From a virus, in IMG/VR virus record IMGVR_UViG_3300045256_000135, positions 1 to 64,000 of that record: 64,000 nt of DNA; one strand, written 5' to 3'. Made by a program: the position numbers and the translations under genes. Each line of letters starts with the position of its first letter. Positions within the stretch are counted from its first letter, which is position 1. The notes beneath the pieces are model-generated. The model was not told where the DNA came from and ran no database searches. It saw nothing but the letters and a program-made list of their open reading frames with translations. This document shows positions 14,784 to 61,522 of the stretch, piece by piece.

Positions 14784-15250
14784 CTTAGGCCTGGAGCGGC
14801 ACCGAAGCCGCGAAAGGCAGGACATCATGGAAAGAGCGTTCAAGATCGGTTGCAGAGTTTTCTTCTTTGACAGTCAACGTCAGCCGCATGAAGCCATTGT
14901 TACGAATTGGTTTCATGGTGGACCGGATGGACAGACCCTTGAGGAGTATGCACAGAAGCCTGGGTACACTCCCAACTGGTTGCCTTGCTGCAACGTAGTT
15001 TGGGTTTCGTCTGACACGTCAAAGTCTGACAACTATGGCAGACAGATCGAACGTAACACTTCAGTCGCATATGGGCGTAGCCAAGGCATGATTCCGTTCA
15101 TTGGGATGTGCTGGTGCTGGCCCGACGAGATTGAAGAGGCTACGAAGTTGGCTGAAGAGGCTTACGCCAAATCAGTAGCGAAGTAGCACCCAGCCAGGTG
15201 GAACCCACGAGGAACCACAACCCTGGTTTCGATGTCGCTCCAGGCCTAAG
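14784..15250. repeat. 26-bp inverted repeat (arms 14784-14809 and 15225-15250) enclosing one gene
   Basis: CTTAGGCCTGGAGCGGCACCGAAGCC pairs with GGTTTCGATGTCGCTCCAGGCCTAAG: 23 Watson-Crick, 2 G.U, 1 C.A. Confidence 0.9.
14827..15186 (+). CDS. small beta-rich hypothetical protein (..YGRQIER..) inside the inverted repeat
   Basis: AGGA RBS then ATG; 119 aa; IGCRVFFFD..HEAIVT..CNVVWVS. Confidence 0.75.
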   Translation: MERAFKIGCRVFFFDSQRQPHEAIVTNWFHGGPDGQTLEEYAQKPGYTPNWLPCCNVVWVSSDTSKSDNYGRQIERNTSVAYGRSQGMIPFIGMCWCWPDEIEEATKLAEEAYAKSVAK

Positions 15251-26849: not shown

Positions 26850-27791
26850 ATGTTTAGAGCGACTATCGTTGGGTACGAGCTACCCAGCCACAAGCAAGCT
26901 GAGCTACTCGTTCTGGCGGAGGCGCTCCAAGTACAGTTGGACGACATCGCTGACATCTGGGGAGTGAAGAAGGGACGTGTCCGCAGTGTCAACACGTTCT
27001 TCGTCCCTGACGAGGACGACTTCGTCGTGTACGTCACCAGCTCCCCAGTCTACGGTGAGCTCCTGGACAAGACCGGAGCGTACGTGATGGTGGCGGACGA
27101 TATCTTCCAGAGTGTGTCGCTGGAGATCTCCAAGCGTCTTGCGTCTGCGTTCCTCAACCCGAATGAGAGAACATACATTCACGCTGGTGAATCTCTCTAC
27201 CAGTTGGACATCACAGCTCCGGTTGCAAAGTTGTACTACACCCTCCAGATCCGAGGTCTGGGTGTGATGCTATGCAACTGGGTCTACCCAGATTATTTCG
27301 GAGGCGATGGTCCGTTCGATCACATTCGCTCTCTTCAGGAGAAGCTCAGTGGCTCGGACGCGCTATTCAGTGTGGAAGCCGATCTGCCGTTCGCTAAGAA
27401 TAGCAAGGTTCGCGTAATGCATGAAAGCGAGATCAAGGAGCTGGAAGCGGCTCTGAACGACGCACACAAAACTGTTGCACACCAAGCTTTCCACGACCCA
27501 GAACCAATTCCGGAAGCAGTGTCTACACCCGTCTTGGACACTGACCCCGAAGCTGTTCTTGATGATGCTGAGAAGTTGCAGGCGTCAGCCTCAGAACCCG
27601 CTGAGGAGACTTTCGGTCCTCCAGCAGAACCCGAACTGGAGAAGCTGGACCAAGTGCCATCGAGTGTTCCACCTGCAGCTGAGACAAAGCCAGTAGTGGT
27701 ACCTGAGCCAGCTCTGGCTAAAGTGGAATCGCCAGCGAAGGCACCGGTAAAACCAGCAGCCAAAGGTGTTCAGAAGCCTGCTAAGAAGTAG
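26850..27791 (+). CDS. hypothetical protein with a P/A/E/K-rich C-terminal tail
   Basis: AAGGAG RBS; 313 aa; followed by a terminator-like hairpin. Confidence 0.65.
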   Translation: MFRATIVGYELPSHKQAELLVLAEALQVQLDDIADIWGVKKGRVRSVNTFFVPDEDDFVVYVTSSPVYGELLDKTGAYVMVADDIFQSVSLEISKRLASAFLNPNERTYIHAGESLYQLDITAPVAKLYYTLQIRGLGVMLCNWVYPDYFGGDGPFDHIRSLQEKLSGSDALFSVEADLPFAKNSKVRVMHESEIKELEAALNDAHKTVAHQAFHDPEPIPEAVSTPVLDTDPEAVLDDAEKLQASASEPAEETFGPPAEPELEKLDQVPSSVPPAAETKPVVVPEPALAKVESPAKAPVKPAAKGVQKPAKK

Positions 27792-27805
27792 TATTCGAGC
27801 ATAGC

Positions 27806-27847
27806 AAAACTGCCCTGAGCACTATAAACTGTGTTTAGGGCAGTTTT
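27806..27847 (+). terminator. intrinsic terminator-like hairpin, possibly bidirectional
   Basis: AAAACTGCCCTGAGCAC-TATAAACT-GTGTTTAGGGCAGTTTT, 17 bp with 2 G.U. Confidence 0.75.
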
Positions 27848-27862
27848 CATGTTGGAGTGTAC

Positions 27863-29476
27863 ATGTCACAGGCAACTATCACTCTGATTGGGTCTGGCGT
27901 TTCACAGATCACTCTGTTCGGGGTGACTCTCACGCCAGGACAGCCAACTGGGTCCATTCCGTCGGCTGACATCTTGTACAGCTACCGAATGACGTTTGAT
28001 GGATCCCTAACTCCTGGTAGCCCGGATGGTTATGTGAACCTCAAGCTGGCTCTGAACAGAGGTGAAGTGCAGCTGACCATGGGCTCGGTAGTGATTTTGA
28101 ACGGTGATCAGCTCCGAGTGTATTTGGACAGTATGATCGCCACGGCTGATGCTCAAGACATCACAATCACGAGCTATACCGAACTTGCCTGGACCCAGCC
28201 AGTCTGGGATATTGATCCGATCAATGGGAACGACAATAACACGGGGTTAGAGGGCCAGCCGATCAAAACGTTTCTGGAGCAACATCGTAGGGTTGGCAGA
28301 CACGAAGTGGATTCGGTTATGTCTTCCCAGACTCCAAAGGTGAAAGTCCTCATCAGAAGTTCGCTCTTGCCAACTGACAAGATGGTGATCGATCTCACTT
28401 TCAGATCCCTGCCGGACTACCCATTCGACAACTCGTACATCCCCTACCAGATTCTGGGTACTCCGCAAAAGGTGAACGGAGCAAACGGTACGATCACAAA
28501 CGTTCGCTCTTACAATGCTGGTCTGAATCGCACTTGGGGCATCACTACCAGTACTAATCTGGCTTCACACATCATCCCTGGCAGATATCTGCAACGAACG
28601 AATGTTGTCACTGCATTCCCAAATCGCTGGTGGGTTGCAGCAGATGAGGGCGGAGGTGTTTATCGCGTCTCCTATCCCACCCACTTCGCGTCAGACGACA
28701 TCGTTAATGGGGCGAATGACGGCACGTTTAGCATCAATGACACCTACGACGTGTACGACCTTCCAGTGATTGGGGCGCATGACATCCGGACGTCCCAACC
28801 AGTCGTTCAGAGCATGCTCATAAACAAGCTCAGATTCTCTGGCCTGGGCATTCAAGCAGCTGGTCAGATAGTCTTCACAGAGTGTGCATTCGACAACAGT
28901 GTCTTTTATGGTGATTGGGCAACGTTCTCGAATTGCCAGATGAACGGTCTTGTGACTGCATCCAGAAAGACGTACACATACTACGCGTTCGGCTTGTTTC
29001 TCAACACCACTCGAATCTGGATAGGTCAGCCCACTTTCCAGAACTATGTGATGTTCCAGGGTGGCATGTCCCTACCAACAGACGGTGGTGTTGACTTTCA
29101 CTGCCACACCCGCGGGTTCCAAGTGTTCGATCAGGATGGTGACGGATTCACTCTAAATTCAAACGACACCTTGCTGCTGAATGGTGGTATCATTGGCAGT
29201 GGTAATTCTGGGTATGGGTGGAACATCGAGCGCGGAGCTAGTATGATTCTTAATGGTGGCTTGATGAAGGCTGTTGGTGCACTCGGGGACTTCATGGTTG
29301 GTGGAGCTACATCGGGACCACGAATCACTACCACGTACCCCTACGGGTATGCTAGCAACATCGCGTATACCAACGACAACTTCAACAAGCTTCTGTCGGA
29401 CGGCGGCTTCGGGCAGGTGGTTCCGATGCCGACTTCACCTATTGGTGGAGTGTCTACTAGCTATACTCCAACCTGA
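27863..29476 (+). CDS. putative tail fibre/spike-like structural protein
   Basis: WDIDPINGNDNNTG...PIKT motif typical of beta-helix N-caps; G/N/T-rich C-terminal half. Confidence 0.55.
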   Translation: MSQATITLIGSGVSQITLFGVTLTPGQPTGSIPSADILYSYRMTFDGSLTPGSPDGYVNLKLALNRGEVQLTMGSVVILNGDQLRVYLDSMIATADAQDITITSYTELAWTQPVWDIDPINGNDNNTGLEGQPIKTFLEQHRRVGRHEVDSVMSSQTPKVKVLIRSSLLPTDKMVIDLTFRSLPDYPFDNSYIPYQILGTPQKVNGANGTITNVRSYNAGLNRTWGITTSTNLASHIIPGRYLQRTNVVTAFPNRWWVAADEGGGVYRVSYPTHFASDDIVNGANDGTFSINDTYDVYDLPVIGAHDIRTSQPVVQSMLINKLRFSGLGIQAAGQIVFTECAFDNSVFYGDWATFSNCQMNGLVTASRKTYTYYAFGLFLNTTRIWIGQPTFQNYVMFQGGMSLPTDGGVDFHCHTRGFQVFDQDGDGFTLNSNDTLLLNGGIIGSGNSGYGWNIERGASMILNGGLMKAVGALGDFMVGGATSGPRITTTYPYGYASNIAYTNDNFNKLLSDGGFGQVVPMPTSPIGGVSTSYTPT

Positions 29477-51674: not shown

Positions 51675-51739
51675 TGGTAAACCTGTCTCCAAATGAGTTC
51701 TAGGTGTACGTAGCTATATAGTTAGCTGTGAGAAATCGA
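51675..51739 (-). repeat. dispersed element E3 (inverted)
   Basis: Reverse complement TCGATTTCTCACAGCTAACTATATAGCTACGTACACCTAGAAC...GAGACAGGTTTACCA; near-identical to E1 over about 35 nt. Confidence 0.85.
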
Positions 51740-51762
51740 CATCTGATAGCATTGATCCGACT

Positions 51763-51801
51763 CCTTGATTTCTGATCGATCATCATTATGATCATTGTAT
51801 G
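51763..51801 (+). promoter_or_regulatory. promoter P7 (leaderless)
   Basis: TTGATT 51765-70, N16, TATGAT 51787-92, CATTGT, ATG 51799. Confidence 0.85.
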
Positions 51802-57229: not shown

Positions 57230-57730
57230 ATGCGAGTTTGGACTGTTCCGCTATCTGAGCTCTCTGATCAGCACGTTCTTGGTCAGCACCAAGAGTGGCA
57301 TATGCTTGAAGCAATGATGCGAAACAAGCAATTTGTTCGCCATCCGCTGGTGAAGTTCTTCAAGGACAAAAAGCCGTGGCTAGTTCAGTTCCATGCTGAG
57401 CTAGTCGAAGAGATACGTGTTCGGTTCGGATCGGAGCCGTCTAAGCACCAATCGCCGGTTCCATCAGCCTGGCGAGAGTCGTTGGATCCAGCAAAAGTGC
57501 AAGAGATCCTGTGGCCAGAGAGTTGGCTAGAGTTCGATCGTGAGGATCTGCGTCGCCGGTCGTTTGAAAAGCCAAAGCTTAGGTTTAAGGCGACTCAGCC
57601 ACCACCCTGGTGGCGAAAGGATTCTGATCTCCAATTTCCGTTGGGAGTGATCCCAATTCACTCGTACGCAAATCCCGAAACGTTTGGCAAATACATCTAC
57701 GAAGGAGAGCCAGCAGTTGTCTGGCGTTGA
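57230..57730 (+). CDS. pyrimidine-dimer DNA glycosylase-like (DenV family)
   Basis: MRVW..LSDQHVLGQHQEWH..HP..HAELVEE. Confidence 0.6.
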   Translation: MRVWTVPLSELSDQHVLGQHQEWHMLEAMMRNKQFVRHPLVKFFKDKKPWLVQFHAELVEEIRVRFGSEPSKHQSPVPSAWRESLDPAKVQEILWPESWLEFDREDLRRRSFEKPKLRFKATQPPPWWRKDSDLQFPLGVIPIHSYANPETFGKYIYEGEPAVVWR

Positions 57731-57734
57731 ACAC

Positions 57735-58796
57735 ATGGCTAAGAAACTCGCTAAGAAGAAGTCTAAGAAGCAATCGAATCTCAAGAAGATCATGCACATT
57801 GCATTCTGCATTGATGCATCGGGTTCGATGCATAACATTCTCGCACCCACCGAGAAGGCTTTTAAACAGTATGCCTCAGATCTCCGCAAGATCGAGTCAG
57901 ACACTGGCGTTGAGACCCGAACTAGCATCTACCGATTCGGCTGCGGCGGTACGAGTGGTGTGGAGAAGACTCACGCCAATCTCGAAATCATGGAGCTTCT
58001 GAAGGCAAAGATCCCATTTACAGCGGAAGGCCAAACGCCCCTGCTCGATTGTGTTGGAGACGCCACTAAGGGGTTTGACGGCATCCGGCCGAAGACCGGT
58101 GAGAAGGTAACGTTTCTCGTCGTCTGCTTGTCAGACGGTGGTGAGAACTTCTCTCGTCGGTTCAACAAGGAGACTCTGAAGAACCTGATGCAGGAGAAGA
58201 TGCAGACGGATTTGTGGACGTTCGTCTTCCTCGGTCCGAGAGGTAGCAGAGGCTACTTCGAGCAACTCGGGATCTCGACTGACAACATCAAGGAGTGGGA
58301 CCAGACGGAGAAGGGCGTAACCGAAGCCGTCTCTGCTGTTACTCGAGGAACCCAGTTGTACGCTAGCAACTATGCTAGCAAGGGCATCACAAAGTCTACG
58401 AGCTTCTTCTCCGACGCTTCGAAGATCTCCGTTAGCAAGGCCAAGAAGGCCTTGGACAAGCTCAACGGGAAGTTCTTCGAATGGAAGGTCCCGACGGAGT
58501 GCGAGATCAAGGAGCTGGTGGAACAGAAAGGCTACGAGTACGAGAAGGGCAAGGGCTTCTATCAGCTCACCAAGGATGAAAAGGCAATCCAAGATTACAA
58601 GCAGCTGATGCTCCGTGACAAGAAGACGGGTGACCTCTTCGGTGGAGAAGATGCACGCTCCCTGCTTGGCTTTCCGAGCACTGGTAGCATCAAGGTCAAG
58701 CCAGGTAATCACGGTAACTGGGACATTTTCGTCCAGAGCACGTCCGTGAATCGGAAGCTCGTTCGCGGTACGATTCTGCTCTACGCCAAGAACTAA
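57735..58796 (+). CDS. von Willebrand factor A domain protein
   Basis: MIDAS DASGSM, TPLLD, SDGGEN, WTFVFLG. Confidence 0.85.
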   Translation: MAKKLAKKKSKKQSNLKKIMHIAFCIDASGSMHNILAPTEKAFKQYASDLRKIESDTGVETRTSIYRFGCGGTSGVEKTHANLEIMELLKAKIPFTAEGQTPLLDCVGDATKGFDGIRPKTGEKVTFLVVCLSDGGENFSRRFNKETLKNLMQEKMQTDLWTFVFLGPRGSRGYFEQLGISTDNIKEWDQTEKGVTEAVSAVTRGTQLYASNYASKGITKSTSFFSDASKISVSKAKKALDKLNGKFFEWKVPTECEIKELVEQKGYEYEKGKGFYQLTKDEKAIQDYKQLMLRDKKTGDLFGGEDARSLLGFPSTGSIKVKPGNHGNWDIFVQSTSVNRKLVRGTILLYAKN

Positions 58797-58965: not shown

Positions 58966-59601
58966 ATGAATACTACAGCACCAGTGAAGAAGCCACGAAA
59001 GAAGTCGAATCTTCCGCCCGAGCTAGCTCCCGTAGATCCGTCTTCGGTCTGGAGGTGGTACTGTGTTGTCACTGGTTCTGCGTCTGAGGGCAAGGTTGTA
59101 CTCAGACTTCGAAAGTATCTCGAGCTGATGGGAATGCAGAGTGCAGTTAAGGCTACGCTTATACCCATCGGATTCATTCCAGTGATAGATGCTAAGGGTG
59201 TCAGAGAGATCAAGAGGGAGCGTTTGTTTGCAGGCTACTTGTTTCTGCTAGCCAAGATGACTCCATCTCTGAGAGACTTGGTTCTGTCGATTGAGTCAGT
59301 GTCACAGTTCATCTGCGATTCGAATGATCGCTTGTTGCACATTCCTGACAGGCAGATGGAACAGATTCTGGTTAGCATGATGCAAGCAACCAACCCGACA
59401 GCAGCGAAACCTAAGTTTGCAAAAGCCTCAGCAGTTGCTATCACTGGTGGTGGATTCCAGAACTTCCACGGAACGGTAGTCGATCATGTTGGCGACAAGG
59501 TTTCGGTAAGCGTAAGCATCTTCGGACGAAAGACCACAGTAGTCTTCCATGAAAACATGGTAGTGCCAGCAAAGCAAGAAGATTTCTCTAGTACTCCTTG
59601 A
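58966..59601 (+). CDS. NusG-family transcription elongation factor (NGN + KOW)
   Basis: WYCVVTGSASEGKV..LFAGYLFL..GGFQNFHGTV..VSVSIFGRKTTV. Confidence 0.88.
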   Translation: MNTTAPVKKPRKKSNLPPELAPVDPSSVWRWYCVVTGSASEGKVVLRLRKYLELMGMQSAVKATLIPIGFIPVIDAKGVREIKRERLFAGYLFLLAKMTPSLRDLVLSIESVSQFICDSNDRLLHIPDRQMEQILVSMMQATNPTAAKPKFAKASAVAITGGGFQNFHGTVVDHVGDKVSVSVSIFGRKTTVVFHENMVVPAKQEDFSSTP

Positions 59602-59641
59602 TTTCTCTACAAGCATCATTATGATTGATGATGTAAGGAGG
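59596..59641 (+). promoter_or_regulatory. promoter P10 (with SD)
   Basis: TTGATT 59598-603, N16, TATGAT 59620-25, AAGGAGG, ATG 59650. Confidence 0.8.
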
Positions 59642-60143
59642 AAGGGAAGATGATCTCCAACAAAAAGCTGATCGCTGAGAAGGACAAGCTGATCGCTGAT
59701 TTTCTGGCAACGAAGGCTGGTTGGGTTGCTCTCGGAGCTGACCCTGCCCTCTTCGACGAACAGATCAACAAGCTTCAAACCGAGCGAGCACAGCTCACAT
59801 CGAAGATTGGCAAGTGAAGACAATGAGCAAGCTTCAAAGGAAGATCCGTCGGGAGCGGAAGATGGATGCGTGGCTGGAACGCCGTGCCACCCGATCGAAG
59901 TTTGCTCGGAAGCAGTTCGAGAAGGAGAACGGCCGGGCTCCCCGACCTGATGCTCTCAGTGAGGCGTCGAAGAAGTGAAAAAGACTCTGGTAGACCTTAC
60001 TTGGATTCGTCGGCAACCGGAAACAGCTACATTCTTTGTTCCCGACGTCACTGCCGCGCCTGTCAAAAAGCTAGTAGCCATTTTCCATGCTACCAACGGG
60101 CGTCTGGTATTTATCGAACAAGATCAACTCAGGAGAATCGATT

Positions 60144-60479
60144 ATGGCAACGCGTAAGAAGACGGTTAAGCGCACTGTGAAGCGGGTTCAGAAGACGCGG
60201 AAGCCCGCGCGGGTGAAGGAGCAGGTGATCTGGAAGCTCAGTGGTCACGGAAACCATGAACTCCCGAAGGGGTACAAGATCCTGTTTGGCAAGGACCGAA
60301 GCGGGACTCCCAAGGTCTGGGCTTTGGTCGATCCCACTGCCAAGAAGGTGACGGTCGAGTTGCGGGTGATTCGGACGGGAGCTCCCTTTCCGAAGGGGTT
60401 CGAGTACGTCGGTAGCTACGATTCGTCGCCGACGTCCCACATCCTCGTCGGTCCTGCCAGCAACCACTCCGAAGACTGA
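60144..60479 (+). CDS. hypothetical protein with a basic N-terminal tail
   Basis: AGGAG RBS; MATRKKTVKR...VWALVDP..IRTG..YVGS. Confidence 0.65.
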   Translation: MATRKKTVKRTVKRVQKTRKPARVKEQVIWKLSGHGNHELPKGYKILFGKDRSGTPKVWALVDPTAKKVTVELRVIRTGAPFPKGFEYVGSYDSSPTSHILVGPASNHSED

Positions 60480-60865
60480 CTTCAGCTAGCTCTCATTGAG
60501 AGCGGACAACCACGAACTGCCGTGGAGCTGAAGTCGCAGTAGAGACATTTGACTCGGTGTCTCCGGTTCCTCCTCTGATACGGCGAAGAGATCAGAGGAG
60601 GAATTGTTTGCTGCTCTGATCATTGAGGAGGCTAGTGTTTTCGATTTTGGGGTTCGACTGGATGGCGATCAGGAGTCACAACTTAATTAGACCCTGGGAC
60701 CCAAAGCTATCGGCGTAAATCGGTAGTGTACACAGTTCATCAAAGAGAAACCTCTCGCTTACGTAGCAAGAGCAGCCTCGAACCAGCCTGGCCAGCTGGG
60801 TTCTGTGACCAGTCACCATATACTCCCCACTTCAAAGACACTAGTCTCCTCAAGGACCAGAGAAG
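60478..60865 (+). ncRNA. candidate structured non-coding RNA(s), class unknown
   Basis: About 390 nt with no ORF in the track; three-way junction, two hairpins and a 250-nt domain closed by a 19-28 bp stem with nested helices; G.U pairs favour the + strand. Confidence 0.65.
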
Positions 60866-60877
60866 TTACTTCGAGCT

Positions 60878-60916
60878 CCTTGATTTCTGATCGATCATTA
60901 TTATGATCATTGTATG
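60878..60916 (+). promoter_or_regulatory. promoter P11 (leaderless)
   Basis: TTGATT 60880-85, N16, TATGAT 60902-07, CATTGT, ATG 60914. Confidence 0.85.
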
Positions 60917-61522
60917 AGGAACATGGAACACAGACTTTTGGGAATGGGATCTGGTCCGTCCGTTGATAAGCCGTTGGGAGTCAATTGGATTGATCAGAAG
61001 TACACTGGTACGCCTGGTCTGGTCGGAATGACCCTGTGCCCCGGTCGAAAGGGCCACGGTGCTTCCCAAATCCACAATCGCTCGGTCGACGCAGATGTTA
61101 CGACGATGCTGGAAATGGATCCCAAGGTTGATGCCCTCCTTGGTTTGATGGAAGCGTTCGAGTATCGGATGCTTCAGGCGGATACGCTGGCACATAAGTG
61201 TCGGGAGCAGTCGATCGACTATCTCTGGTATCCGATGCCCGATGGGGGCACCCCGCGGGATATGCGATCAGCCAGGTCGGTGGTCAACGCTGTGGTCCAG
61301 AAGCTCCGTTACGGTGAGAACATTGTGATCCACTGCAAGGCGGGTTTGGGTCGAACCGGGCTCCTTGCTAGCTGCATTCTGATTCGCCTCGGCTGGTCTG
61401 CTGAAGACGCGATGCGAATTGTCCGCCAAACTCGAAAGGGTACGATCGAGAACAAGCGCCAAGAGGCCTTCGTCAACGACTTTGGTGGACGTCAGTCCCA
61501 GTTCCGCAACCTGCCGGGTTGA
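60914..61522 (+). CDS. dual-specificity / CDKN3-like protein phosphatase
   Basis: GMTLCPG, PMPDGGTP, P-loop HCKAGLGRTG, RKGTIE..Q. Confidence 0.9.
   Translation: MRNMEHRLLGMGSGPSVDKPLGVNWIDQKYTGTPGLVGMTLCPGRKGHGASQIHNRSVDADVTTMLEMDPKVDALLGLMEAFEYRMLQADTLAHKCREQSIDYLWYPMPDGGTPRDMRSARSVVNAVVQKLRYGENIVIHCKAGLGRTGLLASCILIRLGWSAEDAMRIVRQTRKGTIENKRQEAFVNDFGGRQSQFRNLPG

Follow-up and report, generated by a model that had tools for sequence, protein, structure and literature searches.

A long-range inverted repeat in an intergenic spacer of a 183-kb phage genome as a candidate RNA processing stalk

Gene order and promoters around the spacer

The window, i.e. the whole stretch of DNA that was analysed (64 kb), is the first part of a virus record of 183,244 bp that CheckV rated as complete. 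The genome has a G+C content of 50.5%, and about 90% of its genes (197/218 with our own ORF caller) lie on the + strand. Among four DNA runs that were compared, two, both labelled as hot-spring / microbial-mat metagenome, contained the stretch whole and were flagged as its possible source, and the other two contained just short identical pieces of it.

Downstream of the genes for a VWA-like protein and a NusG paralogue, promoter P10 is followed by four small genes, the last of which encodes a DUF7352 protein (Table 1). An ORF-free spacer then extends to the start codon of a dual-specificity phosphatase gene, which has its own promoter, P11, and an ATG (60914) that sits 7 nt past the −10 box. 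An Rv2179c-like exoribonuclease is encoded farther along, past the phosphatase. The spacer is one of only two ORF-free gaps longer than 400 nt in the 183 kb. The earlier note had proposed here an RNA domain ending just before P11 and had called it the largest non-coding stretch of the window. Both positional statements agreed with our analysis: the 434-nt spacer was the biggest ORF-free gap in the window with a crude ORF caller, and the 255-nt unit closed by the stem described below ends 15 nt ahead of the P11 −35 box (60880).

Table 1. Coordinates of the genes, promoters, and structural features discussed in the text
Feature	Coordinates	Strand	Remarks
VWA-like protein	57684-58796
NusG paralogue	58966-59601		PF02357, E 3.9e-10
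Promoter P10	59598-59625	+	TTGATT, 16-nt spacer, TATGAT
DUF7352 protein, last gene ahead of the spacer	60144-60479	+	PF24043, E 3.7e-11
ORF-free spacer	60480-60913		434 nt
Three-way junction, closed by a 10-bp helix	60478-60535	+	right after the stop codon; helix p 0.99
Hairpin 2, 8-bp	60542-60563	+
Hairpin 3	60564-60606	+	13-bp perfect core 60567-79/60591-603, ~16 bp extended; p 1.00
5' arm of the long-range stem	60611-60652		core 60623-60641
Interior	60653-60823		171 nt, unique; weak, strand-ambiguous folding
3' arm of the long-range stem	60824-60865		core 60835-60853
Promoter P11	60880-60916	+	−35 at 60880-85, −10 at 60902-07, ATG 60914
Dual-specificity phosphatase	60914-61522		Cys-X5-Arg (HCKAGLGRTG); PF00782, E 6.8e-12
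Second long-range stem	14784-15250		encloses exactly one 119-aa ORF, 14827-15186
Promoter cassettes in the window	16564, 33093, 34014, 45475, 48504, 51765, 54434, 59598, 60880
Promoter cassettes beyond the window	85781, 141831, 142507, 143934, 145532, 149338, 149677

P10 and P11 belong to a set of 16 near-identical promoter cassettes distributed genome-wide, each consisting of CC-TTGATTT, a 16-nt spacer, TATGAT, and then CATTGT-ATG. The position of the ATG, 7 nt past the −10 box in most cassettes, suggests that the genes are leaderless. The cassettes at 51765 and 60880 are 98% alike across 43 nt. As portrayed in excerpts of two reports (PMC2839356, PMC4122927), the PeSL promoter cassettes of T4-type phages resemble this set; the cassette pattern itself returned 0 matches in IMG/VR. 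Upstream of the other 15 cassettes we found no paralogue resembling the stem element, and the upstream sequence had a folding z score below −3.6 at 3/16 cassettes. The most strongly folded upstream stretch of any cassette is 85519-85772 (254 nt, z = −6.91), which holds a textbook intrinsic terminator with a 20-bp G+C-rich stem and a T5 tail, upstream of the promoter at 85781.

A palindrome that forms a hairpin (AGCTATATAGTTAGCTGT and its variants) was noticed at 51712-51749, 85705-85743, 141774, 117041 (− strand), and 91715. Three copies lie 40-60 nt upstream of cassettes, and AAATCGACATCTRATAG comes next in two copies. This hairpin may serve as an operator or represent a second class of promoter.

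Structure of the stem, its interior, and the adjoining helices

The feature consists of a long inverted repeat that flanks a unique, weakly structured core. Its full stem comprises 35 pairs across 42-nt arms (60611-52/60824-65), and its anatomy was as the earlier note had described. The core stem (60623-41/60835-53) has 19 uninterrupted pairs, 2 of them G.U, and extends outward by 2 bp (60620-21/60855-56), 5 bp (60614-18/60858-62), and 2 bp (60611-12/60864-65). The TGGGG/CCCCA helix (60648-52/60825-29) is present inward of the core after 2 bp more.

We scanned the whole 183,244-bp genome for uninterrupted stems with a spacing of 20-700 nt and at most 2 G.U pairs, and the 19-bp core was the longest such stem genome-wide. 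When the genome was shuffled in 500-nt blocks (n = 30), 0/30 null genomes reached 19 bp and 1/30 reached 18 bp; the real genome contains two such stems. The 255-nt unit had a minimum free energy (MFE) of −97.3 kcal/mol (z = −4.81), with 0/200 dinucleotide shuffles as good. The stem was retained in a 451-nt fold as well as in a 1.1-kb fold, and in the 1.1-kb context the pairing probability of the core was 0.98 at 37 °C and 0.93 at 60 °C. The genome-wide scan, the shuffled genomes, the z score, and the persistence in larger folds together indicate that the closing stem is real and non-random. In its folding, the unit is an outlier but not unique: corrected for composition it lay at −2.88 SD, and 15/3050 genome windows, taken in arbitrary register, were lower, several of them in the neighbouring portion of this spacer. 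Also among the 25 most stable of the 3050 windows (composition-corrected) were 173221-173595, 84601-84915, 82261-82575, and 27601-28035.

Second in the scan was the stem at 14784/15250 (18 bp, 1 G.U), which the earlier note had presented as having the same long-closing-stem design. This second-best long-range stem of the genome does exist and is likewise non-random, with 26-nt arms, 18 uninterrupted pairs, and a z score of −6.77. Its arms are located in two intergenic spacers flanking one gene, the product of which had no Pfam or PHROG match, and its non-Watson-Crick positions amount to 2 wobbles on the + strand and 1 on the − strand.

The folding signal at 60.6 kb comes almost wholly from the closing stem, because the interior alone is close to its shuffles. 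By itself, the interior (60653-60822, 170 nt) had z scores of −1.74 on the + strand (11/200 shuffles as good) and −0.60 on the − strand (50/200 shuffles as good), and of −0.86 to −2.13 at 60-70 °C. The proposed comparison of RNAfold energies with shuffled controls thus set the whole unit apart from its shuffles, with the interior alone barely exceeding them; of the suggested 250-nt RNA domain, the closing stem is confirmed and the folded domain as such is not. Past the arms, the interior lacked inverted-repeat symmetry, as 75/500 shuffles aligned equally well. Its ORFs (≤54 aa) had no Pfam or PHROG match.

Of the helices listed by the earlier note inside the unit, ATGGCGAT/GTCACCAT and GTCACA/TGTGAC were missing from the + strand MFE structure, and forcing them cost 6.4 kcal/mol on the + strand (−90.9 vs −97.3) and 0.5 kcal/mol on the − strand. 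The + strand MFE and centroid structures were multi-branched with 3-4 hairpins. Two of the hairpins that had been named differ in the strand they favour: the one at 60706-27 (3 G.U) formed on the + strand only (p 0.93 vs 0.02), and the one at 60752-72 was better on the − strand. The reverse strand of the unit folded as well as the forward strand (−99.1 kcal/mol, z = −4.81). The arms mismatch at 5/31 aligned positions, with differences of the transition type and the transversion type alike. Their non-Watson-Crick positions (G.A, A.C, A.G, G.U, U.G, and C.A) give 2 wobbles on the + strand and 2 on the − strand, so the G.U pairs are no pointer to the + strand.

The rest of the spacer, with its predicted three-way junction and two hairpins, appears to be more strongly structured than the stem-closed unit: z was −6.62 for 60476-60612 (137 nt) and −6.34 spacer-wide (451 nt). 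The words CTCTGAT and GAGGAGG of the 5' arm of the stem recur in the arms of hairpin 3. CTCTGAT...GAGGAGG is common to hairpin 3 (60564-60606) and to the rod formed by the stem (60614-60631, 60846-60862), with CCTCCTC/CTCCTC opposite. Since these words are shared, alternative pairings are possible, for example, GATCAGAG at 60590-97 with CTCTGATC at 60614-21, and the reuse of words may stem from a local duplication or be part of a switch. Genome-wide, GATCAGAG/CTCTGATC has 26 occurrences, vs ~5.6 expected, and GAGGAGG/CCTCCTC was also noticed at 108.4 and 160.3 kb, in unrelated contexts.

A consensus scan detected no promoter within the unit, and a terminator scan of 59500-61500 returned 3 terminator-like sites, 0/3 of which were on the + strand. 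An intrinsic terminator was rejected for the stem, which is followed by AAGTTACTTCGAG, and for hairpin 3, which is followed by AATTGTTTG, because neither has a U tract; the AATTGTTTG tail of hairpin 3 was not flagged by the scan. Canonical terminators exist in this phage, as the one with a T5 tail at 85519-85772 demonstrates, and hairpin 3 is unlike them. The predominance of + strand genes (~90%), the lack of + strand sites among the terminator-like ones, and the missing U tract of hairpin 3 make read-through from P10 likely, and P10 transcripts probably run through the spacer.

Searches for known families, homologues, and relatives

A search of the window with Rfam 15 at the gathering threshold gave 5 matches, all tRNAs at 46-55 kb. 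ARAGORN gave the same 5 tRNAs only, in keeping with the earlier view that the unit is not a tRNA or tmRNA. At E ≤ 10, 60400-61000 had just a chance match to snoU25 (18 bits vs a gathering threshold of 50), which lay outside the element. The families covered by Rfam include 6S, Y RNA/YrlA, group I/II introns, small ribozymes, and GOLLD/ROOL/HEARO. The cmsearch check on novelty therefore found no known Rfam family in the element.

The specific identities suggested for the RNA did not withstand these and related searches. Like 6S RNA and retron msr-msd, the unit of ~200 nt has a closing helix formed from its 5' and 3' ends. The idea of a 6S-like decoy was contradicted by the absence of a 6S match at E ≤ 10 and by a fold that is multi-branched, not a rod with a central bubble. 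A retron-ncRNA mimic is disfavoured because the genome has no reverse transcriptase: PF00078 had 0 matches in the whole 183-kb record, and the control genomes were positive. The 42-nt arms do correspond to the flanking a1/a2 inverted repeats of retrons, a feature that is not retron-specific. For a protein sponge, no repeated protein-binding motif was seen. Bacterial Y RNA differs in having a TROVE partner, for which this genome had 0 matches (TROVE/Ro, PF05731), and in its Rfam family, which the unit did not match.

No relative of the spacer was found in the collections searched. blastn of 60480-60920 against 50,697 phage records gave nothing. With an 8-kb query around the spacer, the sole match was 84 nt in the DnaQ/RNase H gene of a mycobacteriophage, and single-protein scans of IMG/VR with both flanking genes returned no relative. 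An alignment of the phosphatase with 7 homologues led to 12 IMG/VR loci, and 80 of 410 metagenome loci were among the matches listed; all the phosphatase loci among these listed matches were ≤49% identical, with partial protein coverage. The closer phosphatase homologues were P0002 (58%, on a 29-kb contig) and P0003 (46%, on a 16-kb contig). When the spacer was compared with 94 foreign loci (753 kb) using blastn and nhmmer, no match was better than E 2.9.

The terminase had relatives in one IMG/VR contig (37%) and, among the 50,697 phage records, in Virus Rctr197k (38%), and none in GTDB genomes. Neither of the two records contained a match to the spacer, and the terminase gene of Rctr197k is not preceded by a comparable gap. 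Isolate relatives of the VWA and NusG neighbours were ≤32.5% identical. On these sequence comparisons, the lineage appears to be almost unsampled. A second contig, of 366,137 bp and roughly double the record in length, carries an identical phosphatase, so the true genome may be larger, or a dimer of it may have been assembled elsewhere.

Interpretation of the long-range stem

We tentatively favour a reading, possible though well short of probable, in which the spacer is transcribed and its long-range stem, lying between the P10 operon and P11, serves as a stalk for RNase III-type processing or for insulation. The release of discrete units from long transcripts, which the earlier note had raised, is the reading that best survives elimination. 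The mechanism that we infer, from transcription through the two stems and the strand used to the cleavage and its effect, would run as follows. The 434-nt gap (60480-60913) would be transcribed as the 3'-terminal spacer of the P10-driven operon, and in the + strand RNA the arms (60611-52 and 60824-65) would pair into a 35-bp nearly continuous double-stranded stalk, a putative substrate of the host's double-strand-specific RNase III. The cut would separate the upstream message from RNA that continues into the P11 region. Stable helices, namely the three-way junction, hairpins 2 and 3, and a stub of the stalk, would then terminate the upstream message on its 3' side, and the ~200-nt loop would be freed as a by-product or a small RNA. 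The stem at 14784-15250, bracketing one gene, would be the same device.

Several observations argue for this processing stalk. No long-range pairing elsewhere in the genome is as strong as this stem, and it was matched in 0/30 shuffled genomes. Inverted repeats 171 nt apart do not readily extrude as a cruciform in duplex DNA, and long-range pairing is common in RNA; the distance between the arms thus favours RNA over a DNA cruciform. The spacer is packed with helices, including a three-way junction that has no DNA-level rationale, a second stem of like design brackets exactly one gene, and the DNA-level rivals lack their partners (duplication, copies, and enzymes). RNase III substrates are double-stranded over at least some two turns of the helix, and in silico the stem attains this length, with 19 uninterrupted pairs within 35 of 42 positions (p 0.98).

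Other observations speak against the stalk. Neither strand is favoured: the reverse one folds just as well, and the wobbles are distributed 2/2 here and 2/1 in the second stem. The interior has no significant structure, and only 1/16 promoter cassettes has such an element upstream. The RNase III is assumed to be the host's, because the phage genome contains no RNase III gene. The evidence at present amounts to one non-random stem in one genome, and a working RNA is an unproven candidate.

The known RNase III sites of phages are short-range hairpins, a few tens of nucleotides long, that contain an internal loop. If real, the present stalk would differ from them by its long range. At this candidate site, the arms are 171 nt apart and would enclose a loop, and at 14784-15250 they would enclose a whole gene. 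The resemblance lies in the setting, since sections of one account (PMC5371410) place the sites of T7, T3, and lambda, as double-stranded RNA, in non-coding spacers of long co-directional transcripts. The same sections describe RNase III processing of intergenic duplexes in phages lambda, T7, and T3 and in the spacers flanking rRNA genes, and they describe phage sites at which cleavage separates messages and leaves protective helices (PMC5371410). For rRNA operons, they mention intergenic RNase III sites to either side of the rrs and rrl genes (PMC5371410). The stalks of rRNA operons are alike in the long-range pairing of a unit's flanks, with one enzyme cutting both ends; they enclose rRNA, whereas the sequence enclosed here is 171 nt, weakly structured, and without an Rfam match.

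If the stems are processing stalks, the phage would be using the rRNA-operon trick to cut defined pieces from polycistronic transcripts. Such cutting would add an extra layer of post-transcriptional control atop 16 near-identical promoters that are hard-wired to leaderless start codons. Any RNA confirmed here would be new, because the lineage is almost unsampled and the nearest terminases are 37-38% identical. The present value of the locus is that of a well-delimited, testable candidate, not a discovery.

Among the alternatives, the likeliest, which we still consider doubtful, is that the stem has no selected function and is a template-switch or inverted-duplication product decaying in the spacer. 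Decay would account for arms that differ at 5/31 positions by mismatches of both types and without strand bias, and for an interior that is near random; the element is also unique to this genome, with no relatives found, and, after composition correction, 15/3050 genome windows fold as well. Phage genomes are, however, compact, and in these 183 kb just one other ORF-free gap exceeds 400 nt. Structure is stronger still in the remainder of the spacer than in the unit, and the second long-range stem, unrelated to the first, sits precisely in the spacers around one gene.

An unlikely alternative is a DNA-level element upstream of P11, either a relic MITE or an inverton, with 31-42-bp terminal inverted repeats. 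Imperfect 42-nt inverted repeats (5/31 differ) around a unique, unstructured 171-bp core are compatible with both, as are the size of 255 bp, the intergenic position, and mismatches without strand bias. Invertible promoters (invertons) and the G segment of phage Mu have inverted repeats of ~20-35 bp that bound a short segment beside a gene start. The unit differs from these in that the phage has no recombinase (0 matches each in the genome to the serine and tyrosine families, PF00239 and PF00589), the consensus scan found no promoter-like site inside, and no second orientation was seen: no strand-changing joints or variant letters occurred at the arms in the assembled contigs of one sample, and contigs drop minor forms.

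With MITEs the unit shares its non-coding nature, its 255 bp, long terminal inverted repeats, an intergenic location, and the lack of a transposase inside, and its size and repeats lie within the limits of 50-800 bp and at least 10-15 bp given in the relevant sections of a survey (PMC11602168). The same sections report MITEs in just 0.01% of viral sequences (PMC11602168). Unlike MITEs, the unit has no target-site duplication at either plausible boundary, the flanks being GTTTG|...|TTACT (60611/60865) and TTGCTG|...|AAGTTA (60614/60862). It also occurs as a single copy: a search of the genome for a second one gave 13 matching places, all of them the promoter cassette (last 60 nt of the query), and no other arm was found in the genome even when 8/31 mismatches were allowed. 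Elsewhere, a 22-nt degenerate arm pattern, which diverged copies would escape, had 0 exact matches in GTDB species genomes and IMG/VR. No helper transposase was detected either, since DDE_Tnp_1 and rve had no matches in the genome; for an inverton, a host enzyme could supply the missing recombinase.

We regard as quite unlikely a stand-alone, trans-acting phage ncRNA, for which the 255-nt unit would be the mature product and would serve as a decoy, sponge, or guide. Such an RNA would profit from the real stem and the z score of the unit (−4.81) and from the interior hairpin at 60706-27, which is specific to the + strand, and it would be new, as no known family matches. The interior z scores (−1.74 / −0.60) count against it. 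So do the lack of its own promoter and of a + strand terminator in the consensus scan, the lack of any repeated loop motif, and its occurrence as a single copy with no homologue in the collections searched. The partner genes are absent as well (0 matches for RVT_1 and TROVE), and for the TnpB family there was one sub-threshold zinc-ribbon match (18.8 bits) at 79.9 kb, 19 kb distant.

By analogy with rRNA operons, one could combine such an RNA with the processing stalk, an idea that is more improbable still. The lineage would then bracket chosen units, a non-coding loop of 171 nt here and an entire gene at 14784-15250, with rRNA-like stalks, host RNase III would excise them, and the unit here would become a stable trans-acting phage small RNA of a new class, which might, for instance, soak up a host factor during a switch between the leaderless and leadered gene sets.

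The remaining candidates were rejected: a replication origin (the GC skew climbs monotonically along the 183 kb without turning at 60.6 kb, and the sequence there is not rich in A+T), a pair of operators for DNA looping (neither arm contains a dyad), a hidden gene (the ORFs of ≤54 aa have no family, and reading TGA as W or TAG as Q merely fuses frames across neighbouring genes), and a riboswitch or leader (the downstream gene has promoter P11 to itself and begins there without a leader).

Two further features of the genome were recorded. The largest true ORF-free gap is at 154689-155161 (473 nt, 44% G+C); it contains TAAGAGAC units in a short tandem array as well as a palindromic sequence around GTGTATATACAC, and may be a regulatory or origin region. 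Across the whole genome, GATC occurs 1321 times vs ~716 expected and TGATCA 111 times vs ~45, an excess that seems unusual for a phage and may have a bearing on methylation or restriction avoidance.
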